A DNA stretch of 44,458 bases from Coriobacteriales bacterium. Its GTDB lineage: Bacteria > Actinomycetota > Coriobacteriia > Coriobacteriales > UBA8131. Location of the stretch: NCBI GenBank assembly GCA_031279835.1, contig JAITHV010000011.1, positions 1 through 44,458 of the forward strand, in the 5' to 3' direction. A program made the translations under genes and the position numbers. The notes under the pieces were generated by a model. That model was not told where the DNA came from. It did no database searches and saw nothing but the letters and a program-made list of their open reading frames with translations. Each line of letters opens with the position of its first letter. The first letter of the stretch is position 1. Positions 6,893 to 23,897 of the stretch are shown here, one piece after another.

Positions 6893-7933
6893 CTATCGCT
6901 GCGTATAGGAGCGCTGGAGGGCGTTGGGGTTTTCGAGCGCCATCGCACACCCGATGACGACGTTGGTGAACGCGGTCTCAGAGACATAGACGGGCACCTC
7001 AAGCTCGCGCGTCAAGAACACGTCGAGCATCTTGAGCAGCCCGCCGCCGCCGGTCAACAGGATGCCGTTGGTGATGATGTCGGCGGCCAGGTCAGGGTCA
7101 GTCTCGAGGAACGTCTCCTTGATTGCGATAAGGATGTCTTGAAGCGGGGCCTTTATCCCCTCGCGCACGTCTTCGGACTGGATGAGCTCGCTGCGCGGCA
7201 AATTGGTGGCCAGGTCGCGCCCCGAGATCTCCATGTCCAGCTCGCCCGAGCTGATGGGCATAGCAGAGCCGATCGCTATCTTGATGTCCTCTGCCGTGCG
7301 CACGCCGATGTTGAGCCCATAGACCTCGCGCACGTGACGCGCCACTGCCTCGTCGAACTCGTTGCCGGCAATGCGCAGCGAGCGCGAGGTGACGATGCCG
7401 CCGAGCGATATTACCGCGATCTCAGTCGTGCCGCCGCCGATGTCAACGACCATGGAGCCGGTCGGCTCCTCTACGGGCAGCCCGGCGCCGATGGCTGCCG
7501 CCATGGGCTCCTCGATCAGGAAGGCCTGGCGGGCGCCGGCTTGTATAGTCGCCTCAAAGACAGCCCGCTTTTCGACCGAGGTCACACCGCACGGAATACA
7601 GATGACAATACGCGGCTTTGGCTGCCAGAGGCGGGTCTTGGGGTTAGCCTTGTTGATAAAATACGACAGCATCGCCTCAGTAACGTCGTAGTCTGCGATC
7701 ACGCCGTCTGCCAACGGGCGCTCGACCGATATGTTCCCGGGGTTGCGCCCGATCATCTCGCGCGCCTCAGTGCCAACGGAGATGACGCGGTTGACCTCGT
7801 TGTCGATGGCGACGACAGACGGCTCGTTTAAGACGATGCCCTCGCCGGCAATGGCGACAAGGGTATTGGCGGTCCCCAGGTCGATCGCCATGTCACAGCT
7901 CCATTGGCTGAATAGATTGTCGAGGATCGACAT
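6893..7933 (-). CDS. mreB: Actin-like rod shape-determining protein MreB
   Basis: IDLGTANT, EEPMAAAIGAG, VDIGGGTTE, LTGGGGLL motifs. Start set at ATG 7933 (MSILDNLF). Confidence 0.96.
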   Translation of the reverse strand: MSILDNLFSQWSCDMAIDLGTANTLVAIAGEGIVLNEPSVVAIDNEVNRVISVGTEAREMIGRNPGNISVERPLADGVIADYDVTEAMLSYFINKANPKTRLWQPKPRIVICIPCGVTSVEKRAVFEATIQAGARQAFLIEEPMAAAIGAGLPVEEPTGSMVVDIGGGTTEIAVISLGGIVTSRSLRIAGNEFDEAVARHVREVYGLNIGVRTAEDIKIAIGSAMPISSGELDMEISGRDLATNLPRSELIQSEDVREGIKAPLQDILIAIKETFLETDPDLAADIITNGILLTGGGGLLKMLDVFLTRELEVPVYVSETAFTNVVIGCAMALENPNALQRSYTQR

Positions 7934-10582: not shown

Positions 10583-11233
10583 TCACGAGGACCCGTCAGC
10601 GCGCGGCATGTTGCCGCTGAGGATCCGGCGCTCCATCTCGAGCAGCTCGTCAGGGGTGTTCACATTGATAAAGGCGCCGCCGCGCGGGTCGGCCGCAAGC
10701 GTCATGTCGTGGTCGAACTCGACGACGCGCACGCTGCCATACCAGGAAGTGGCGCGGGTCTGGCCCTGCCTGAGGGCGGCATGCACGATGGGCAGGCAGG
10801 TCTCGCGGCGGTACACCGCATGAAACGGCTCGTAGCCGTGGCTGGTCACGGGCACAGCGATATCGGCACCGCTTTCTGCCAGGGCGTCACGTTCTGCCAA
10901 GAGCAACGGGGCAGAGGGAAACACCATGTCGCAGGCGACAACGCCCACATAGGGGCACGAGGCGTACAGCAGCGCGGTGTACAGGCCGTTCAGGGCGCTG
11001 CGCTTGTCATAGACGTCGCTGAACATCTGGAGCTTGTCATAGGTGACTTGTGCGCACAAGAACGCCAGGCTGCGCTTGTCGTTGGTGGTGACGATAAGCT
11101 CGTCCGCAATGCCCCCCAGGCGCTTTAAGCCACGGCACAGCATGGGAGAGCCAATAAACGGCACCAGCGCCTTCGGCTTTCCCATTCGCTTTGACTCTCC
11201 GCCTGCCTGGATCACTACGGCCAACTCGTTCAT
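10583..11233 (-). CDS. mobA: Molybdenum cofactor guanylyltransferase MobA-like
   Basis: IQAGGESKRMGKPKA, VACDMVF, EPFHAVY, FINVNTPDEL motifs. Start is ATG 11233 or 11242. Confidence 0.85.
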   Translation of the reverse strand: MNELAVVIQAGGESKRMGKPKALVPFIGSPMLCRGLKRLGGIADELIVTTNDKRSLAFLCAQVTYDKLQMFSDVYDKRSALNGLYTALLYASCPYVGVVACDMVFPSAPLLLAERDALAESGADIAVPVTSHGYEPFHAVYRRETCLPIVHAALRQGQTRATSWYGSVRVVEFDHDMTLAADPRGGAFINVNTPDELLEMERRILSGNMPRADGSS

Positions 11234-11488
11234 AAAGAACATTATAGCATTTTGAGCAACGTTTTGTGAGCTTGAATGCAGGTTCTCTACTGCATGTGAC
11301 CGACATCTGGCCGAGGAGCGGAACGGGGCAGCCATGCCACGACAAGGGGTGTGCGCGCGACAAAAAGGTCACTGCCACACGATGGCGACTCACGTGCCGC
11401 TCAGCAGCGAGCCCATGGCGCACCGCATGTGCGCCGCACACCGAGCGCTCTGGCCAGATGGGAGGTTGTTTTAGCATGTCATCAACTC

Positions 11489-15283: not shown

Positions 15284-15308
15284 GACCAAGCGCGTGTTTT
15301 TTTCTCCG

Positions 15309-15350
15309 GAGGGGCCCGTCGGCAACGGCGGGCCCCTCTTGTGTGCTTTT
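15309..15350 (+). terminator. Intrinsic terminator after nifJ
   Basis: gaggggcccgtcg-GCAA-cggcgggcccctc 13-bp stem followed by ttgtgtgctttt. Confidence 0.75.
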
Positions 15351-15358
15351 CAGGCGCC

Positions 15359-16651
15359 TCAGACGTAGCGCAGGCCGTTGACGATCTGCTCGAGGAGCCA
15401 CAGTGCGCCTTCCGGCCCATACAGCTGCTTGCGCGTGATGTCAAGGTAGCTGAGAGACGGAAACCCGATCTCGATCCCGCAGGTCGCATGGCCTTCCATG
15501 CGGCAGGCAGCGATGGTGTCGCCGTCTGCCAAGACGAGCTGAGAGGGCGTGCTCACGATACGGCGCCCCAGCGCTCCTTCGCTGCATATAGCCTCAAGAT
15601 AACGTCGCAACGCGTCACCATGACCAGAATCCTCGCCCGGCAAGAGCTCTATCGCCTGCGGCACCATGCCGAGGTACCCGCTCAGCCATCGCACGAACGG
15701 GTAAGCCATCGAAGGTGTCGCGCGCAGCGAGTAGTAGGCGCCTTTGGGCAGGCCAAGGCGTGAGGAAAAGCGCGCCAGGTGCAGATAGGCGCAGGCACGG
15801 GCCTTCTCCATCTGCAGGGCTGCCGCAGACGGGTCTGCGCCCAGGGCAGCGCAGACGTGCTGGACAAACGACTCGGTCGCCTCAAAGCCGATGGGCTGCC
15901 CCTCCTCTACGCACAGCCACGGCGTCCCCCACTCGACTGCAAGCTTGCGTGCCGTCAGCAGGCCGGTCTCGGGGCACACCACGACATTGAGCTCTGCCTC
16001 GCGAGCGCGACAGACCGTCTTGAGGCCGTCCCCAGCCCCCAGTGCGCTGATCACTTCGATGCCGCAGAGCATGAGCAGCTCGCGCAGCGTCGCGTAGTTG
16101 TGCTCGTAATGCTTCTGGCTCAGGTTCAGGCCGAGAAGGTTGACCGAGCAAGGAGTCTTGGGGACCTCGGGCAGGGCAAGCGTGTCGAGCATGCTGTTGA
16201 CCGCCAGCTGGAACCCGTCGCCATAGGCGCCTGACGAGCCGGTGTTCTCGATCGCGAGGTGCAAGACGTCGTCCAAGGCGCCGGCGAGCAGTCGTTCAAG
16301 GTCGTCGCCGATCAGGGCGGCGCCTGGCGAGTTGACCACTGCGATGAGCGAGAAGCCCTTTGAGGCCACCACGCGCAGCGTCTCGTCGAGCTTCTGTGCG
16401 CTGCCGAAGACGTAGTCGTCGCCGTCTAGGTACGTTGACGGCACGCGTGGCTGTCCGAAGTAACAGCGGTCGGCGTACGAGAGTGGGTCGTAGTCTGCCG
16501 AGCGCGGGAACTGCGCGTCAGACACGGCGCTGTGAAAAAACTTGCAGCCAGTCGGCCCGTTGAGCACCACGGCTGCGTCGGCCACGCCCTCGAAGGCGAA
16601 GATCGCGCCCGTCAGGCTGTCAGGAAAGGTGCTTGCGATATAGGTCGCCAT
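15359..16651 (-). CDS. Nitrogenase component 1-like oxidoreductase subunit (NifK/BchB/BchZ-like)
   Basis: LNGPTGC, STYLDGDDYVFGSAQKL, LIGDDL, SVNLLG, PIGFEATESF motifs of the nitrogenase component 1 fold. Overlaps the upstream fusion gene by 32 nt; GGAGG RBS. Confidence 0.88.
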   Translation of the reverse strand: MATYIASTFPDSLTGAIFAFEGVADAAVVLNGPTGCKFFHSAVSDAQFPRSADYDPLSYADRCYFGQPRVPSTYLDGDDYVFGSAQKLDETLRVVASKGFSLIAVVNSPGAALIGDDLERLLAGALDDVLHLAIENTGSSGAYGDGFQLAVNSMLDTLALPEVPKTPCSVNLLGLNLSQKHYEHNYATLRELLMLCGIEVISALGAGDGLKTVCRAREAELNVVVCPETGLLTARKLAVEWGTPWLCVEEGQPIGFEATESFVQHVCAALGADPSAAALQMEKARACAYLHLARFSSRLGLPKGAYYSLRATPSMAYPFVRWLSGYLGMVPQAIELLPGEDSGHGDALRRYLEAICSEGALGRRIVSTPSQLVLADGDTIAACRMEGHATCGIEIGFPSLSYLDITRKQLYGPEGALWLLEQIVNGLRYV

Positions 16652-18920
16652 CACGCCTCCATCCTTCCTCGATGTCTATGCGCATCATGTCTGCCCAACG
16701 AGACGCCCGGTAAATCCCTGAGAGAAAGCCCGCGTCGGGGCACAGCGGTATCGTGTCCATAACCACCCCGGTCAAGTCGTCAGAGAACAGGTAGTTGCTG
16801 ATAAGGACGTCGGGGTCGATGTCGCGCACCTCTGCGGTGCGCTCCAGGGCGTCGAACTCCAGTTCAGTCTGCAGCACTTGGATCTGATCGATGAAGCGGC
16901 TCACAAAGCGGTTTTCTTGTGAATATGCGAGTATGCCCACATAGGCAATTTGCATGCCGAGGTCCAAGGCGGTGGACAAGATCCAGTCGATGTTGTGGTT
17001 GAAGGTCACTATCATGAGCCTGCGGCCTTCGAGGATGGGCCGCAGCTGCTCGACCAGCGCGTCATAGCGCCTTTGAAACGTCTCCACGATGCCCGACACG
17101 GCGTCCTCGCGGCCATAGCGCGCGGCAAGCTCGGCAACCCAGGCCTGGCTCTCGGCAAAGCCGATCGGCATGGCCTTGTCGAAGAAGACCGCGCCGAACT
17201 CCTCTTGCAAGTAGTCTCGCAGGCCGCGCCCCATGTAGTCCTCGTTCGCAAGGAGGTTGAGCGGCGCCTTCATGAAGCCGCGCAGCTGCTCGTAGCTGGT
17301 CTCACAGATAAAGCGGCAGTTGACCCGAAGGCCGAGCTGGACAAGCACCTCGGTCACGAAGTCGAGATTGCCTTCGGTCGCGTTCGCGATGGTCTTCTCG
17401 GCAACGATGTTCACGAGGTCGGGCTCGGTGCTGACGCCGCGCTCGATCAGTTCCTCGGCGATGTGCTGGTAGGCGAGAAAGATGCCTTGGAGATGATCGC
17501 CCGTCAGGTTTCCGTCGGCAGCAAGGGGTATGACGCGCGTCTGGTCGTTGCCGAGGGCGCGCGTTGCCTCAATGTCTTCGCCGATGATGCCACTCGGGCA
17601 GGTGGAGACCACAAAAACGGCGGGCGGACGACACGCCACAGCCTGCTCCACGCGCGCGCGCAGCTTGTCGCTGCCTCCAAACACCATGACGGCCTCGCTC
17701 ATATCGGTACTGAAGATGGGAGGCGCCGTCAGCATCGGCAAGACCGTGCCGCGCTCAAGGAGGTGGCGGCGCGAGAGCGACGTGATCGTCTGAAAGGCGA
17801 TATGCGCGCAGCTCTGTGGCCCGTGCGCGACGCTCAGGCAGTCGGCGAGCTGTGTGGTGATGGAGAGAACCCCGTTGAAGGCACAGCCGTGCAGCGGCTC
17901 CTTGGCTGCGACGCTCTTAGAGACGAGCGGGCTGGAAGCAGGCGGCGCGGGCGCGGCGCGGAACACGTCGCCTCCGGAGGCGCCGTTGCTGTTGTCAGCG
18001 TAGGCATCGCTGCTGTCGGTGTGGGCAGGCACTTCGCAGGTTGGCGCAGGCACTTCGCAGGTTGGCGCAGGCGCGGCTCTCTTTGGTGCGGGCGTGAAGG
18101 ACGTCGGCGGCCTTCTCCCCTCCAAAACGCACTCTTCCAGCGCCCGGTCGCCAAGCGGGCGCGCATGGCACATGGCCGAGTCGTCGCACATCCTCTCGGC
18201 GAGCGCGCGCAGCGTCTCGGCCAGCGCAGAGCCTGGCGTGTGCTCAACAATGCAGCGCATGGCGCGCTCGCTGGCTGCGAAGGTCTCGTCTCGCGGCAGT
18301 GCGGCGACGATCGGCAGGCCTGCCGCTTCGGCGAATCGCTCAACCCGCTCAAGCTCGCCGGATCCTCCTCGCGCGTTGAAGACCAGGCCGCCGACGCGGC
18401 CGGCCTCTGCCTCGTAGTTCTGCATGCCGCGCAGGATGTTGTTTGCCGCGTATATGCTCATAAACTCGCCGGAGGTGACGATGTAGACGCGGTCGGCGTA
18501 CTCGTTGCGTATGGGGACTGCGAAGCCGCCACAGACCACGTCGCCGAGCACGTCGTAGAGAATGACGTCCCAGTCGCGCCCGAACACCCCTAGGCGCTCC
18601 AAGAGCTCGAAGGTGGTGAGAATGCCGCGCCCTGCACAGCCGACGCCGGGCTCTGGGCCGCCCGCCTCAACGCAATGCACGCCGAAGGCGCCCACGCGCA
18701 CGATGTCGTCGGCCGCGTGCTCTCCCGGCGGCGCGTCGCGTATATAGTCGAGCACCGTCGGAGGAGAGGCGCCGTGGAGCAGCAGGCGCGTCGAGTCGTG
18801 CTTGGGGTCGCAGCCGACTTGCAGCACGCGCTTGCCGAGCGCGCCCATCGCCGCAGCCACATTGGCCGCAATAGTGGACTTCCCTATCCCACCCTTACCA
18901 TAGAGCGCAATTTGTGACAT
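16620..18920 (-). CDS. Fusion of a NifH-like Fe protein and a nitrogenase component 1 (NifD/BchN-like) domain
   Basis: N-terminal IALYGKGGIGKST, GCDPKHDST, EAGGPEPGVGCAGRG, DVLGDVVCGGF; Pro/Ala linker; then GCAF, HGPQSC, STDMSEAVMVFGG, STCPSGIIGED. ATG 18920 has an AAGGAG RBS. Confidence 0.92.
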   Translation of the reverse strand: MSQIALYGKGGIGKSTIAANVAAAMGALGKRVLQVGCDPKHDSTRLLLHGASPPTVLDYIRDAPPGEHAADDIVRVGAFGVHCVEAGGPEPGVGCAGRGILTTFELLERLGVFGRDWDVILYDVLGDVVCGGFAVPIRNEYADRVYIVTSGEFMSIYAANNILRGMQNYEAEAGRVGGLVFNARGGSGELERVERFAEAAGLPIVAALPRDETFAASERAMRCIVEHTPGSALAETLRALAERMCDDSAMCHARPLGDRALEECVLEGRRPPTSFTPAPKRAAPAPTCEVPAPTCEVPAHTDSSDAYADNSNGASGGDVFRAAPAPPASSPLVSKSVAAKEPLHGCAFNGVLSITTQLADCLSVAHGPQSCAHIAFQTITSLSRRHLLERGTVLPMLTAPPIFSTDMSEAVMVFGGSDKLRARVEQAVACRPPAVFVVSTCPSGIIGEDIEATRALGNDQTRVIPLAADGNLTGDHLQGIFLAYQHIAEELIERGVSTEPDLVNIVAEKTIANATEGNLDFVTEVLVQLGLRVNCRFICETSYEQLRGFMKAPLNLLANEDYMGRGLRDYLQEEFGAVFFDKAMPIGFAESQAWVAELAARYGREDAVSGIVETFQRRYDALVEQLRPILEGRRLMIVTFNHNIDWILSTALDLGMQIAYVGILAYSQENRFVSRFIDQIQVLQTELEFDALERTAEVRDIDPDVLISNYLFSDDLTGVVMDTIPLCPDAGFLSGIYRASRWADMMRIDIEEGWRRDGDLYRKHLS
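18025..18072. repeat. 21-bp tandem repeat x2.3 in the NifH-NifD linker (PAPTCEV)
   Basis: gcaggcacttcgcaggttggc at 18025-18045 and 18046-18066, plus gcaggc. Confidence 0.9.
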
Positions 18921-19112
18921 GTGTCTCCTTAAATTCGTCAATACGGCAGCATAAAACAAAGGAAGATGCCCTTGTGACAAAACACGCGCGTTGGTGTGTA
19001 AAGCCCTGTGGTGCCAAATGCAGCGCCCGAGAGGCGCTTCTCAGTGCCCGCTTACATCGTAACGCATCCGTTGCGGTGCTGCTCCTGGCGCGCCCTGACA
19101 AACGGCAGCAGG

Positions 19113-21221
19113 TCAGTGCTCGAGAACATAGGCGACAAAAGCGTCTGGCTCCAACGGCCTGCTGAAGTAGTATCCCTGGAAGTACCGGCACCCGATTGCC
19201 GTGAGCGCCTCGACCTGCGCGGCCGTCTCAACGCCTTCTACAATGATCTTGAGGTCGAGCTGGCCGGCAAGCTGGACGATGGATCGCACGATCTCCTGCT
19301 GGCGTACGTCGTCTGCGATGTCACTCACGAGCGAAGTGTCTATCTTCACCGAGGACACGCCGTAATCCGTGATATAGGTCAGCGACGAATAGCCCATGCC
19401 CATGTCGTCAATGGACAGGCTCACGCCCTGTGCGCGCAGGTCTTTGAACAGGTGCTGCATCGTAGTGCCCGACCGCACCGCCACGTGCTCGGTTATCTCG
19501 AGCTCGAGCTCGCCCTCGGCGATCCCGTGCTTGTTAAGCAGGCTGCCGATGAAGGCCGGGAACTCAGGGTCTTGAGCCAGGTGGCGCGGGTTGAGGTTCA
19601 CCGACAACACCGGCGGCGCAATGCCGAGCGCCTTCCAGCGCGCAAGCTCGGCGATGCCGACGCCTGCCACCCAACGCCCGAGCTCGACCGAGAGGCCTGC
19701 CTCATCGGTCATTTCGACAAGCACGACGGGCGACACGGCGCCGTGCTCAGGGTGCGTCCAACGCAAAAGGGCCTCGGCGCCGACGACGCGCCCCGCCGCG
19801 TCGGTCTTTGGCTGATAGACGAGGCGGAAGGGCAGTTGTCCCGAGTCGAAGTACTCATGGAGCTCGACGGCAAACTCGCGGGCGGTGTCGCCCAGCGCGT
19901 CGCGCCGCATGAGCAGCGAGGACTGCTCGTTTTCTGCCGCGTCGAGCGCTACAGCCTTGAACCGGTCGAAGCGCGCGCGGTCGATCGCCTGGTTGCGACG
20001 CTTGACCCAGCGCACGAAGGGCAGGTAGACAAGCACCGACACCGCGAGACACACGCCTTGCAGCAGCGCGCCCGCCACTGAGCCGGTTGCCAGGTAGCCG
20101 GATGCGACAACCGGTGTCGTCCAGCCTGGGCTTGCCGTTATCGGCGGCACGATCCCTGAGCCGAAGGCAACAAGGCACAGCGCGGCGTTGAGGAGCGGCA
20201 CGCCGACGAAGGGCACGAGAACAAACGGGTTGAAGACGAGTGGCAGCCCGTAAAGCAAGGTCTCGTTGACGTTGAGCAGCGAGGGGAACACCGAGGCCTT
20301 GGCAATGCGCCGCCCATGCTGGCGCGAGCCGACGATGAGCAGCGCGGCCAACAGCCCGAGCGTGGCGCCACAACCGCCCAGGTTGATGAAGCTGAGGTAG
20401 AACTCCTTGCTGGCGAACAGCGTCTCGCCCGGCAGCGCCCCCGCGCCGGCCGCAAGCGACGGGAAGGTCGATATCACCGTGTCGGTGCCGTGCACGCCAA
20501 AGAACCACAAAAGCTGCGACAAGAACACGGTGCCAAGCACCGAGAGCGGGTTGTCTGAGATGAGAAACTCTTGGGCAAATGCCCCGAACGCCTTGCTCGC
20601 CGCGTCGATCTCAAAGACCTCGACGTACAGCACCCGCGCGACGGCAAAGGCAGCGAGGGTCGCCGCGAGGGGAAATATGGAAGCGAAAGCCGAGCGCACC
20701 TGAAGGTTGGCGAAGCGCCATGCCATGCGATTGGTCACCAGGCGCCGCCACAGGCGAGCGCTCGCAAAAAACAGGGAGGTTGCGGCCAACGCGGTAGCCA
20801 GCGCATAGAAGACGCCCGTCCTGCCGGGATGCGGAAAGTCAAGGACGGTGTCGCCGGGAGCGTCCCACACGAAGGCCGCGACATAGCAGGCAAATGCCGT
20901 GAACATCACGACGAAGCGGTTTGTCTCCCCCTTCTTGACAAGCTGGTCCTCACCAGCGAGCTCAAGGCTGACCGAAAGCAGCGCGGCAAGCCCCACGACC
21001 TCAAGCGTAGCGAACTTGACGGCAGCAGTAGCCGACATCCAGTAGCCGTTGGTCATGGCGTTGAGGAAGTCATGGAACGGCGGCACCGGCAGGCCGGCGA
21101 GCGCGGTCGCGAAGGCACCGATAAGGACCACGGGTATGATGTTGACAAGCCCGTTGCTGATCGAGCGGACGTAGCGGTTGTCCGCAAAAGCTGATGCGAC
21201 TGTCTCAGGCACCCTGGGCAT
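19113..21221 (-). CDS. PTS EIIC (cellobiose/chitobiose type) - EAL phosphodiesterase fusion
   Basis: N-terminal multi-TM EIIC with WFFGVHG, GGCGATLGL, NVNE..LYGLPLVFNP. C-terminal YQPK, EALLRW, SVNL, ELEITE, IDDMGMGYSSL, VKID, EGVET, QGYYFSRP. Start is uncertain (ATG 21221 chosen). Confidence 0.9.
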   Translation of the reverse strand: MPRVPETVASAFADNRYVRSISNGLVNIIPVVLIGAFATALAGLPVPPFHDFLNAMTNGYWMSATAAVKFATLEVVGLAALLSVSLELAGEDQLVKKGETNRFVVMFTAFACYVAAFVWDAPGDTVLDFPHPGRTGVFYALATALAATSLFFASARLWRRLVTNRMAWRFANLQVRSAFASIFPLAATLAAFAVARVLYVEVFEIDAASKAFGAFAQEFLISDNPLSVLGTVFLSQLLWFFGVHGTDTVISTFPSLAAGAGALPGETLFASKEFYLSFINLGGCGATLGLLAALLIVGSRQHGRRIAKASVFPSLLNVNETLLYGLPLVFNPFVLVPFVGVPLLNAALCLVAFGSGIVPPITASPGWTTPVVASGYLATGSVAGALLQGVCLAVSVLVYLPFVRWVKRRNQAIDRARFDRFKAVALDAAENEQSSLLMRRDALGDTAREFAVELHEYFDSGQLPFRLVYQPKTDAAGRVVGAEALLRWTHPEHGAVSPVVLVEMTDEAGLSVELGRWVAGVGIAELARWKALGIAPPVLSVNLNPRHLAQDPEFPAFIGSLLNKHGIAEGELELEITEHVAVRSGTTMQHLFKDLRAQGVSLSIDDMGMGYSSLTYITDYGVSSVKIDTSLVSDIADDVRQQEIVRSIVQLAGQLDLKIIVEGVETAAQVEALTAIGCRYFQGYYFSRPLEPDAFVAYVLEH

Positions 21222-21325
21222 GATGCAACATAATAGCGCATGAAAAGGTCGCGGGCGGGCGCGGCACTGACAGGGTTGACAGGTGGCCAACGTCAGAATG
21301 AACGAACCATCATTAAGCGGATCTA

Positions 21326-21334: not shown

Positions 21335-21403
21335 GAAAAAAGCACGGCCTGGGGGCAGCCCCGCATGACGCGGCGGCTCACACACGAAAGGGGCACACTG
21401 CCT

Positions 21404-22498
21404 ATGGACAGCTTGCGACACACCGTGATGATGGTGGACGACAATGTGACCAACCTGACGCTTGGCAAAAACCTGCTCAAGGAAGTCTACGACGTGTACA
21501 CGGTCCCCTCGGCAAAAAAAATGCTCGACCTTCTCGACAAGCTTCAGCCTGACCTCATTTTGCTCGACATCGAGATGCCCGAGATGAACGGGTACGAGGC
21601 CATCAAAAAGCTCAAGTCAGACCCGCGCTTCGCAGACATCCCGGTCGTCTTTTTGACCGCGCGCGCAGACGAGGGCTCCGAGATGGAGGGCCTGAGCCTT
21701 GGCGCCGTCGACTACATCTACAAGCCGTTCTCAGGGCCCCTGCTGATTCAGCGCATCAGAAACCATCTGATCACCGTCGAGCAGCGCAGGGACCTCGAGC
21801 GCTACAACCACGACCTCGAGAGCCTGGTCGAGCAGAAGGCAGCGCAGGTCAACGAGCTCAAGAACACCGTGATCGCCTCCATCGCGGAGCTGGTCGAAAG
21901 CCGCGACAACGTGACGGGAAACCACATCATGCGCACCCAGGCCTACCTGAAGCTATTGCTCGACGAGCTCACCGGGCAAGGAATCTACACAGACCTGACA
22001 CGCGAGTGGAACTTTGACTTCCTGTTCACGGCGGCCCAGCTGCATGACGTAGGAAAAATAGCGATAAGCGACACCATCCTCAACAAGCCGGACCGACTCA
22101 CGGCTGAGGAGTTCGAGATAATGAAGACGCATGCGCCGCTCGGTGTCAAGATAATCAACACCATTGAGGGCAAGACCAAGGAGCATGCCTTTCTCCACCA
22201 TGCCAAGACCATTGCAGGCACCCATCATGAGAAGTGGGACGGCACGGGCTATCCGAGCGGCCTGAAAGGCAAGAACATACCGCTCGAAGGGCGGCTCATG
22301 GCCATCGCCGACGTCTACGACGCGCTCATCTCGGTGCGCCCCTACAAGAAGGCGCTTCCCATCCCCGAGGCAGAGCACATCATCGTGGAAGGCGCCGGCA
22401 CCCACTTTGACCCGGTGCTCGTTGGCGTGTTCCAGACCATCGCCGACCGCTTTGCGAACATCGCCCAAGCGCATCGAGACAGCCCGGCCTGCAGCTGA
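21404..22498 (+). CDS. Response regulator REC + HD-GYP cyclic dinucleotide phosphodiesterase (RpfG/COG3437 type), copy 1
   Basis: VDD...LILLDIEMP...FLTA...KP receiver domain; LHDVGK, HHEKWDGTGYP, IADVYDAL..RPYK. ATG 21404 follows GAAAGGGG. Confidence 0.94.
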   Translation: MDSLRHTVMMVDDNVTNLTLGKNLLKEVYDVYTVPSAKKMLDLLDKLQPDLILLDIEMPEMNGYEAIKKLKSDPRFADIPVVFLTARADEGSEMEGLSLGAVDYIYKPFSGPLLIQRIRNHLITVEQRRDLERYNHDLESLVEQKAAQVNELKNTVIASIAELVESRDNVTGNHIMRTQAYLKLLLDELTGQGIYTDLTREWNFDFLFTAAQLHDVGKIAISDTILNKPDRLTAEEFEIMKTHAPLGVKIINTIEGKTKEHAFLHHAKTIAGTHHEKWDGTGYPSGLKGKNIPLEGRLMAIADVYDALISVRPYKKALPIPEAEHIIVEGAGTHFDPVLVGVFQTIADRFANIAQAHRDSPACS

Positions 22499-22623: not shown

Positions 22624-22763
22624 GTATGTGGTCGTTAATCGTGCGGCAGAGGGGGCAGTTTGGGGACTGCGTCTGCTAGGATGTGCGACCTGTTCCGCAG
22701 CTATCAGTGCTTCAGCGCCCGGGGGCCAGCTTCTCGTCTCAGGGTCGAAAGGGGTTGTTAACC

Positions 22764-23897
22764 ATGAGTGACATCCGCAACAAGGTCTTGTTGGTAGACG
22801 ACAATTTGACCAACCTCTCCATGGGAAAGAACATACTCAAAAACATCTACGAAGTCTACACGGTGTCGTCTGCGCAGCGCATGTTCTCGCTCCTCGAGAA
22901 GATACAGCCGGACCTTATCCTCCTCGACATCGAGATGCCCGAGATGAACGGGTACGAGGCCATAAAGAAGCTCAAGTCCGACTCGCACTTCGCCGACATT
23001 CCCGTCATTTTTGTGACGGCGCGCTCAGACGAAGGCTCGGAGATGGAGGGGCTGAGCCTCGGCGCCATCGACTACATTTACAAGCCGTTTTCGGGCGCAC
23101 TGATCATACAGCGCATCAAGAACCACCTCATCACCGTCGAGCAGCGAAAGACGCTCGAGCGCTACAACCACAACCTCGAGAGCGCGGTGCGGGAGAAGAG
23201 CGAACAGGTCCACGAGCTCAAGAACACCGTCATCACCTCCATCGCAGAGATGGTCGAGAGCCGCGACAACGTGACGGGAAACCACATCATGCGCACCCAG
23301 GCCTACCTGAAGCTATTGCTCGACGAGCTCGTTGAACAGGGCATTTACTCCGACGTGACGAGAGGCTGGAACTTCGACTTCCTGTTCACAGCGGCCCAGC
23401 TGCACGACGTGGGAAAGATATCGATAAGCGACACCATCCTCAACAAGCCGGATCGCCTCACGGCTGAGGAGTTCGAGATAATGAAGACGCACGCGTTGCT
23501 CGGCGTCAAGATAATCAACTCCATTGAGGGCAACACGCGCGAGCACGAGTTCCTGCGCCATGCGAAGACTATTGCAGGCACCCATCATGAGAAGTGGGAC
23601 GGCACAGGCTACCCGTACGGCCTCAAGGGCAGGGAGATACCGCTCGAGGGGCGTCTCATGGCAATCGCCGACGTCTACGACGCGCTCATCTCGGTGCGCC
23701 CCTACAAAGAGGCCCTGCCCATCCCCGAGGCCGAGCGCATCATAGTCGAGGGCGCCGGCTCCCACTTTGACCCGGTTCTCGTCGGCGTGTTCCAGACGGT
23801 TGCGAGTCGTTTTGCGCACATTGCCCAAAACTACCGCGACAGCTCCCCAGAAGGCGAGACGCCGCACACGCCCCTGGAGCGCGCGCGCGTGGCATAG
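22764..23897 (+). CDS. Response regulator REC + HD-GYP phosphodiesterase, copy 2 (tandem paralogue)
   Basis: Same motifs as copy 1 and highly similar to it. ATG 22764 follows GAAAGGGG. Confidence 0.94.
   Translation: MSDIRNKVLLVDDNLTNLSMGKNILKNIYEVYTVSSAQRMFSLLEKIQPDLILLDIEMPEMNGYEAIKKLKSDSHFADIPVIFVTARSDEGSEMEGLSLGAIDYIYKPFSGALIIQRIKNHLITVEQRKTLERYNHNLESAVREKSEQVHELKNTVITSIAEMVESRDNVTGNHIMRTQAYLKLLLDELVEQGIYSDVTRGWNFDFLFTAAQLHDVGKISISDTILNKPDRLTAEEFEIMKTHALLGVKIINSIEGNTREHEFLRHAKTIAGTHHEKWDGTGYPYGLKGREIPLEGRLMAIADVYDALISVRPYKEALPIPEAERIIVEGAGSHFDPVLVGVFQTVASRFAHIAQNYRDSSPEGETPHTPLERARVA

Follow-up and report, generated by a model that had tools for sequence, protein, structure and literature searches.

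A pair of nitrogenase-like genes at positions 15359 to 18920 of contig JAITHV010000011.1 from a Coriobacteriales bacterium (44,458 nucleotides, the whole of which was analysed and is referred to here as the window) raises the question of what such an enzyme reduces when its Fe protein is fused to its catalytic subunit and the cofactor ligand of nitrogenase is missing. An earlier note, made from the letters of this DNA, had described the pair as a stand-alone reductase for an organic substrate, naming tetrapyrroles, carbon-sulfur compounds and dietary or xenobiotic molecules as candidate classes. The pair is a member of a distinct and widespread fused clade of nitrogenase-like reductases, and the gene context of its relatives favours a corrinoid, which is a tetrapyrrole and so belongs to one of the classes named. 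We put at about one in two the probability that the pair serves to process imported corrinoids, as an ATP-driven reductase containing a single [4Fe-4S] cluster. 'Stand-alone' is an apt description of the locus in the window, but it does not extend to the family, whose gene context points to corrinoids. The features of the locus are as follows.

16620..18920, minus strand: nflHD fusion gene, 766 amino acids (translation, Pfam, ribosome-binding site and ATG)
18111..18920, minus strand: NifH-like (Fe-protein) module, residues 1-270; P-loop GKGGIGKS, cluster residues Cys95 and Cys130
17922..18110, minus strand: Pro/Ala-rich variable linker, about residues 271-333, a poorly conserved region of the alignment
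16620..17921, minus strand: catalytic (alpha) module of the NifD/E type; Cys at residues 346, 371 and 441, Asn in the FeMo-co Cys column
15359..16651, minus strand: nflK-like partner (beta) gene, 430 amino acids, with Cys36 as its single ligand Cys, and with invariant Asp11 and Pro109
18924..18930, minus strand: ribosome-binding site AAGGAGA, 3 nucleotides ahead of the ATG at 18920
15308..15339, no strand assigned: G+C-rich hairpin of 14 pairs (pattern scan, consensus match only)

The fused gene pair and its cluster ligands

As judged by translation of the window, the fusion and partner genes overlap by 32 nucleotides (16620-16651). As in the nitrogenase-like superfamily generally, a Fer4_NifH domain and two Oxidored_nitro chains are encoded together. 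The fusion protein, which in the protein search was a 100% match to a database protein, contains Fer4_NifH (residues 3-265, 306 bits) and Oxidored_nitro (residues 346-725, 219.7 bits), and the partner contains Oxidored_nitro (residues 14-427 of 430, 158.2 bits), all above the Pfam cut-offs. Each of the motifs quoted in the earlier note is present, namely GKGGIGKS, GVGCAGRG, DVVCGGF, HGCAF, HGPQSC, STCP and LNLLANEDY in the fusion protein and PDSLTG, NGPTGC and NSPGA in the partner. The Fe-protein domain is intact, as had been stated, and its P-loop, switch regions and both cluster Cys residues are invariant in 26 of 26 aligned fused homologues. The linker differs in length (60-110 residues) and sequence in every homologue (alignment columns about 280-370); the linker of the window, in the region of 17990-18050, includes a direct duplication, PAPTCEV PAPTCEV.

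The ligand columns were assigned using MAFFT L-INS-i alignments with reference sequences taken from genomes: NifD, NifK, NifE and NifN of Pseudomonas kuykendallii (L038), ChlN and ChlB of Anabaena (L144 and L143, respectively), CfbD (L142 and L146), and BchY and BchZ (L246). The identity of the reference BchY was verified with TIGR02015 (709 bits against a cut-off of 425), and BchZ is encoded by its neighbour. The D module has Cys in the columns of NifD C62, C88 and C154, and the partner has Cys only in the column of NifK C95, with Asp or a gap in the C70 column and Pro in the C153 column. In these alignments the six-Cys set of a P-cluster is thus incomplete (three of three ligands in the alpha module, one of three in the beta partner), and the FeMo-co ligand Cys275 is missing, its column being occupied by Asn. 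Both deviations from nitrogenase had been read correctly from the sequence, as had the likeness to the 3 + 1 Cys signature of the DPOR/COR type: the verified BchY/BchZ pair has the identical pattern of three Cys and one Cys, the latter found in BchZ only at the C95 column, where ChlB has Asp.

Each of the three D-domain Cys residues and the single partner Cys is conserved in 40 of 40 family members, and the four ligand Cys are hence no accident of a single sequence. Asp11 of the partner is conserved in all 40 as well. A further Cys, within a PLCP motif, occurs in 33 of the 40 members, and a Cys is aligned with the NifD H442 column in 33 of the 40, the alignment being uncertain in that stretch.

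The AlphaFold2 model of the alpha module had a mean pLDDT of 87.6. A fold search with it gave NifE (TM score 0.70-0.71), NifD (0.66), MarD (0.66) and BchB (0.64) as relatives, and within this range of 0.64-0.71 it was unable to separate the four. A complex prediction combining the D module and its partner with a [4Fe-4S] cluster gave an ipSAE of 0.78 against 0.00 for the best control, a mark attained by 58 out of 80 complexes of solved structure and by 2 out of 110 mismatched pairs; solved complexes of this superfamily exist, and the prediction therefore speaks for likeness to them and is not independent proof. At least 84% of contacts were shared by the prediction runs, and the pLDDT of the partner was at least 88. 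On the alpha side the predicted interface takes in residues 12-16, 37-44 and 110-112, and on the beta side residues 1-14, 33-36 and 108-110. Structural modelling had been proposed in the earlier note as a check on the ligand positions, and all four Cys residues, together with Asp11, fall inside this interface.

A separate clade and its distribution

No NCBIfam equivalog cut-off is reached by either protein. For the H module the best score was that of CfbC (NF033200, 318.6 against a cut-off of 402), followed by NifH (312.6 against 394.35); BchX gave 210.6 against 331.2 and BchL 193.4 against 345.15. Other models gave 86.4 against 653.55 for nifD, 16.5 against 427.3 for nifK, 101.1 against 505.1 for NifE (TIGR01283), 67.2 against 490 for BchB, 36.1 against 268.4 for CfbD (TIGR03282) and, with the partner, 29.8 against 529 for BchZ. 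As every curated cut-off was missed, the proteins were not assigned to any of Nif, Vnf, Anf, NifEN, Bch, Chl and Cfb. The closest solved sequence is MarD of R. rubrum (E 2.3e-19 for the D module), a subunit of methylthio-alkane reductase (MAR), and MAR is also the best match of the partner (E 5e-11).

Component-1 trees were constructed with FastTree (247 rows) and with IQ-TREE in quick mode under LG+G4 (101 rows), from sequence sets that held neither IsrD nor Group VI proteins. The IQ-TREE analysis placed the fused alpha modules in one clade (23 of 23, SH-aLRT 97) and the beta partners in another (23 of 23, SH-aLRT 99), and the fused H modules likewise formed a single clade (19 of 19, SH-aLRT 99). 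With a separate clade for each of H, D and K, the three modules have evolved as a unit. The alpha and beta clades lie outside NifD/NifE (SH-aLRT 100), MAR-like Group IV (99) and CfbD (100), and placement in a characterised clade, which the earlier note had named as speaking against its reading, was not seen. The pair does not share a clade with ChlN/B or BchY/Z, the rows of which are long-branched, ChlN and BchY falling among beta-type rows on long branches in both trees, so that a sister relation is possible. The rows closest to the fused clades belong to uncharacterised pairs of Dialister and of methanogens, placed there with weak support. The window pair itself belongs to a starred clade of four rows that includes L161 and L162, both of which have a B12 context.

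The protein search returned 2698 matches among 8000 scored candidates. All of the 120 matches listed carry both Pfam domains, with lengths of 721-795 amino acids, and the sources among the matches listed include Coriobacteriia, Treponema, Eubacterium, Oxobacter, Dehalobacterium, Syntrophomonadaceae and others. A contig scan with NifH motifs found the fusion also in Methanomassiliicoccales and Methanosarcina among the matches listed, which were mostly ordinary nif/nfl loci and served as reference sequences. Cultured carriers include Eubacterium callanderi, Clostridium tetanomorphum and Oxobacter pfennigii, and for the fused gene the ESM Atlas has clusters of 348, 284 and 58 members. A close match was present in only one of 301 genomes of the window's class, the window's own genome, and in two of 399 genomes of a Clostridia sample, in which two genomes were not scored. 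Given the few orthologues found by the class-wide genome searches, the neighbourhoods of the family were drawn from a metagenome scan. Among 81 further loci, H and D are in one frame in 73, are separate genes in 2 and are cut by a contig end in 6, and the partner gene lies directly after D in 70 of the 81.

Several loci depart from the usual arrangement. H and D are separate adjacent genes in L187 (328 and 410 amino acids) and L222 (245 and 468 amino acids), which are either natural unfused forms or frameshifts. The fused frame of a Myxococcota locus (L016:2627-5884) is 1085 amino acids long, with an H-type match at residues 11-599, and may hold two H-like modules. One Methanomassiliicoccales genome (G305, L147-L150) encodes four paralogous pairs of fused H-D and K in addition to a separate CfbCD, and several of these pairs adjoin two FecCD genes, an ABC ATPase gene and a binding-protein gene.

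The earlier note's statement that such fusions had been remarked in surveys without a function agrees with the relevant passages of two papers: the fusion is mentioned as 'data not shown' and omitted from the tree by Dos Santos 2012 (PMC3464626), and it is named only as a landmark by Borrel 2014 (PMC4153887). Literature searches found no assigned function for the H-D fusion and no paper joining nitrogenase-like enzymes to cobalamin riboswitches or cobamides.

Corrinoid genes around the relatives and the proposed reaction

The window and 58 family loci (59 sources, 863,101 nucleotides) were scanned for riboswitches at Rfam gathering thresholds. Cobalamin riboswitches (RF00174) were detected 22 times, in 14 of the 59 loci, and no riboswitch of any other class was seen in these 863,101 nucleotides. 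At the background density of five fusion-carrying genomes, which is 41 cobalamin riboswitches per 12.5 Mb, 2.8 would be expected (Poisson P = 5e-13), and the count of 14 loci also compares with 2.8 expected (P = 4e-7), the P values being optimistic because the loci are interrelated and their independence is overstated. A control set of 8 other nif/nfl loci (140,413 nucleotides) contained no cobalamin riboswitch.

The pair lies inside a riboswitch-led row of same-strand genes in six loci (L011, L162, L170, L218, L223 and L230) and in the reference genome G335, where the transporters are of the BtuFCD, ECF or TonB type. In L011 the fusion gene is preceded, in this order, by a promoter-like site, the aptamer, a terminator (hairpin and T run) and a ribosome-binding site, and in L162 the riboswitch is followed by genes for a BtuC-like permease and a corrinoid-type ATPase and then by the pair. 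In L230 the riboswitch leads BtuF-like and FecCD genes and the pair, after which come genes for the N-terminal half of CobQ (score 299.5, cut-off 273), a PP-loop protein resembling Dph6, CbiB (score 249, cut-off 166) and a CobD-like protein. A module of the L230 type is also present in L175, L173 and L220, where the scan gave no riboswitch match. The order in L223 and G335 is riboswitch, ECF components, DUF4430 (which we take to resemble transcobalamin), the pair and an S component. A gene for a TonB-dependent receptor lies between the riboswitch and the pair in L218, and in L161 a riboswitch located after the pair directly precedes a BtuB-like receptor gene. A riboswitch or a corrinoid-type neighbour was found in 24 of 67 locus groups. 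The family has no universal partner, the tally of 148 same-strand neighbours giving 147 families.

Two further arrangements were seen in these loci. The 21-kb locus L176 has five cobalamin riboswitches around its fused pair, one of them ahead of an NrdD-like gene. In L175, L173, L220 and L230, the fused pair and btu genes are accompanied by a trio consisting of the CobQ N-terminal half, which is without the glutaminase part, the Dph6-like ATP pyrophosphatase and a Cys-rich zf-like protein (PF04071); the trio may be a split corrinoid amidase. Genes of 170 and 273 amino acids in L175 had no solved relatives.

A route that fits the ligand pattern and the gene context can be outlined. The H modules would dimerise around a [4Fe-4S] cluster and be reduced by ferredoxin or flavodoxin; the adjacent gene for pyruvate:ferredoxin oxidoreductase (PFOR) could supply the reduced donor, although this is a weak hint. 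The H module would be tethered to the alpha module by a flexible linker, with alpha paired to the NifK/N-like beta subunit. ATP hydrolysis would drive single electrons from H to one inter-subunit [4Fe-4S] cluster, held by three alpha Cys and one beta Cys, and from there to a substrate in the alpha/beta cavity. Since there is no P-cluster and no cofactor of the L or M type, the substrate itself would bind in the cavity. The substrates of DPOR, COR and CfbCD, the three characterised members with a single cluster, are all tetrapyrroles, and given this analogy and the gene context, the substrate would also be a tetrapyrrole, in this case a corrinoid. The likely reaction would be reduction of Co(II) to Co(I), or reductive removal of an upper ligand, before adenosylation; reduction of the corrinoid ring is less likely. 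Reductive processing of scavenged corrinoids is favoured because the pair travels with importers, CbiB, CobD and CobQ-like genes and not with early cbi genes. CobQ and CbiB act on adenosylated intermediates.

Extended to the whole fused clade, the proposal becomes more tentative. It is possible, at somewhat less than even odds, that the clade is an unrecognised part of cobamide acquisition in anaerobic bacteria and archaea, which would convert imported corrinoids to a Co(I), ligand-free or ring-reduced form for adenosylation, amidation and completion. The fusion fixes one H module per alpha module, and a core of (HD)2K2 could form only one H dimer. The Fe protein of nitrogenase docks alternately, and a speculative possibility is that the linker could let the single H dimer serve both halves in turn.

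The organism of the window is clearly a corrinoid salvager: B12 riboswitches number 8 in its genome, btuFCD stands behind a riboswitch, CbiB is present together with CobD, and zf-like and CobQ-N genes lie elsewhere (contig C21, 3455-4445). Among the sequencing runs listed for this DNA none is of RNA, and the one DNA run, labelled termite gut metagenome, may be its source. The same 2-Mb genome has a second nitrogenase-like cluster on contig C99 (L009, 3354-9913), consisting of genes for an aminotransferase, NifH, NflD, NflK and a NifB-like radical-SAM protein. The NifH of this cluster scores 399.6 with TIGR01287 (cut-off 394.35), and its NflD, with Cys in the C62, C88, C154 and C275 columns, matches R. 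rubrum MarD at E 2.5e-119; by sequence, the cluster looks like a system of the methylthio-alkane-reductase type. It contains the only NifB-like gene of the genome, and no nifEN was found. The statement that the window has no nifB, nifEN, bch, cfb or mar accessory genes thus stands for the window but not for the genome, where the C99 cluster supplies NifH, NflD, NflK and NifB-like genes. A MinD/CooC-like P-loop gene (GHYGVGKTN) lies just upstream of the fusion in L155 (144-965), L157 (1193-2008) and L158 (2-337), and a homologue is encoded in the window's genome on contig C84 (about 6941-7612).

Several observations weigh against a role in corrinoid processing, above all for this copy, which we infer to share the function of its relatives. 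In the window itself no riboswitch was found at the gathering threshold, the leader region gave no Rfam match at E up to 5, and the neighbours (PFOR, MobA-like, PTS-EIIC/EAL and response-regulator genes) include no cob or btu genes. The eight nearest relatives, L153-L160 (56-65% D identity), have no riboswitch and are absent from the lists of loci with corrinoid-type neighbours. Of the 67 locus groups, 43 are without a B12 element, though many loci are short (26 of the 87 are below 7 kb). The B12-binding motif DxHxxG was absent from all 40 alpha sequences and occurred in one of 40 beta sequences, and the literature searches found no biochemical evidence for any family member. Together with the interrelatedness of the loci, there are also elements of the context that can be read in other ways: FecCD, TonB and FUR neighbours fit siderophore or haem uptake too, the L218 receptor scores 213.8 bits with TonB-hemin against 183.9 with TonB-B12 (both below cut-off), and B12 riboswitches also control B12-independent isozymes, such as NrdD in L176.

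These observations bear on two of the alternatives. The enzyme could act on an imported iron chelate, a siderophore or haem, freeing the iron or degrading the ligand under anoxic low-potential conditions. Such a role would suit the FecCD (4), ABC-3 (3), TonB receptor (2), Peripla_BP_2 (2) and FUR (2) genes among the 148 same-strand neighbours, the archaeal loci with two FecCD genes, an ABC ATPase and a binding protein (L019, L020, L021, L147 and L150) and the better score of the L218 receptor for the haem family than for B12. However, cobalamin is the sole riboswitch class behind the 22 matches, L230 and L175 contain genes specific to cobamide synthesis (CbiB, CobD and the CobQ half), and the transporter subunits match BtuC and a corrinoid ATPase best, and a chelate reductase is therefore considered unlikely. 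Slightly more doubtful still is a B12-independent stand-in, comparable to metE or nrdD, for a B12-dependent step when B12 is scarce, for example in a route to methionine or a sulfur precursor. Isozymes of this kind are commonly repressed by B12 riboswitches, NrdD lies behind one in L176, a PALP enzyme and an aminotransferase are encoded directly after the pair in L026, and Group IV systems are tied to sulfur metabolism in the relevant part of one study (PMC13753814). In L162, L230, L220, L223 and G335, however, the pair is embedded among transporter and cobamide-synthesis genes, and no metabolic pathway adjoins it.

The remaining alternatives turn on the ligands and the trees. That the pair cleaves carbon-sulfur bonds reductively, as MAR and isethionate reductase do, is improbable: MarD is the best sequence match of the D module in the PDB, but three of the six Cys residues of the mar1/P-cluster and the Cys270-equivalent ligand are missing, NifB/MarB is not nearby, the pair falls outside the MAR-like clade, and the genome's own MAR-like NflD is by far the closer to MarD (E 2.5e-119 against 2.3e-19). 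As described in part of PMC11423573, IsrDK has the mirror image of the Cys pattern, 1 + 3. Equally improbable is a scaffold or maturase resembling NifEN, which would build or carry a metal cluster or cofactor for another enzyme and have no small-molecule substrate of its own. NifE is the closest fold and among the best sequence matches, and the MinD/CooC-like gene lies just upstream in three loci; against this, the cofactor column of NifE is without Cys here, and both a NifB partner and a constant client gene are missing. A true or alternative nitrogenase can be dismissed almost entirely, as the pair shares with it the superfamily only and has four P-cluster-site ligands in place of six, no Cys275, no nifEN and 86.4 bits with the NCBIfam NifD model, for which 653.55 are needed. 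Processing of imported corrinoids is the reading that we prefer.

The neighbourhood of the pair in the window includes genes for a convergent PFOR, a MobA-like protein, a cyclophilin, two response-regulator/HD-GYP proteins, alanyl-tRNA synthetase and a cell-shape cluster. The hairpin at 15308-15339 is placed between the stop of the partner gene and the stop of the convergent PFOR gene, and is likely a two-way terminator for these genes, as judged by its sequence. The MobA-like gene (10583-11335) was considered as CobY and dropped, its matches being to MobA models and all below cut-off. A single 725-amino-acid frame (19113-21290, minus strand), on the same strand as the fusion gene and 192 nucleotides upstream of it, joins a PTS EIIC membrane domain (residues 45-362) to an EAL domain for c-di-GMP phosphodiesterase (residues 488-712), an unusual pairing. 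The tandem genes at 21365-22498 and 22683-23897 (both plus strand) each encode a response-regulator receiver and an HD-GYP-type (HD_5) domain.

Significance and comparison with known systems

The relevant passages of a 2026 review describe the missing functions of most nitrogenase-like clades as the main challenge of the field, with gene context having been of little help so far (PMC13474568). For the fused clade gene context does help: the pair is repeatedly surrounded by B12 riboswitches and by corrinoid transporters of three unrelated classes, which gives a testable substrate class. The fusion itself has already been remarked in print; what is new is its proposed link to B12 acquisition, which is a testable lead. 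If the link is true, nitrogenase-type ATP-coupled electron transfer would extend to cobalt-corrinoid chemistry, a function new to the superfamily, and a gap in the anaerobic salvage of B12 would be filled, which could explain how strict anaerobes of gut and sediment make scavenged cobamides usable. The pair would also offer a natural one-polypeptide design of Fe protein and catalytic subunit with which to ask how many Fe-protein dimers are needed per component-1 tetramer. In practice, the fused genes should be left out of nifH/nifD counts in surveys of nitrogen fixers.

The proposed task, ATP-coupled delivery of a very low-potential electron to the cobalt of a corrinoid, is that of the ATP-dependent RACE/RamA-type reductive activators of corrinoid proteins and of CobA-linked corrinoid reduction, which belong to an unrelated protein family. 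Among the nitrogenase-like systems, NifEN is the best structural match and is similar in length and domain order, but NifE has a Cys at the cofactor column and its NifN partner is found in nif clusters. Group VI Nfl proteins of the Elusimicrobia type are encoded, according to the part of the source concerned (10.1101/765248), by separate H, D and K genes among many radical-SAM genes; in the fused clade H is joined to D, and the 25 neighbour families seen most often include none of radical-SAM type. Isethionate reductase (Group IV-F) differs in having one Cys in D, at the C88 column, and three in K, where the present pair has three and one (PMC11423573, in part).

MarBHDK (Group IV-C), the solved structures of which (PDB 9D9U and 9FMG) are identified as MAR in the passages concerned (PMC13474568), is, among solved proteins, closest in sequence to both component-1 modules. 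According to parts of two sources, mar1 of MAR is bound by six Cys residues and mar2, an L-type cluster, by Cys270 and His429, and the enzyme depends on MarB or NifB (PMC13474568, PMC13753814). The present pair has neither the full six-Cys set nor the Cys270/His429 site nor a MarB/NifB partner.

The resemblance to enzymes of tetrapyrrole reduction lies in other features. CfbC of CfbCD (Group IV-B) is the best NCBIfam match of the H module, and CfbCD has a single [4Fe-4S] core that acts on a tetrapyrrole prepared by an amidase of the CobB/CobQ family, CobQ-like genes being recurrent beside the fused pair. CfbD, however, has no K partner and no Cys at the C62 column and forms a clade of its own (SH-aLRT 100), and the methanogens that carry the fusion also have a separate CfbCD (L142 and L146). 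DPOR (BchL/ChlL with BchNB/ChlNB) has the same three alpha Cys and one ligand at the C95 beta column, and no complex cofactor; the ligand is Asp in ChlB where the pair has Cys, and the scores with BchL and BchB fall below the cut-offs. COR (BchX with BchYZ, Group V) likewise acts on a tetrapyrrole. It differs in that H is fused to alpha only in the present pair, which scores below cut-off with the BchX and BchZ models and has no bch context, but the two share an ATP-driven Fe protein and a set of three alpha Cys and one beta Cys, the latter at the NifK C95 column.

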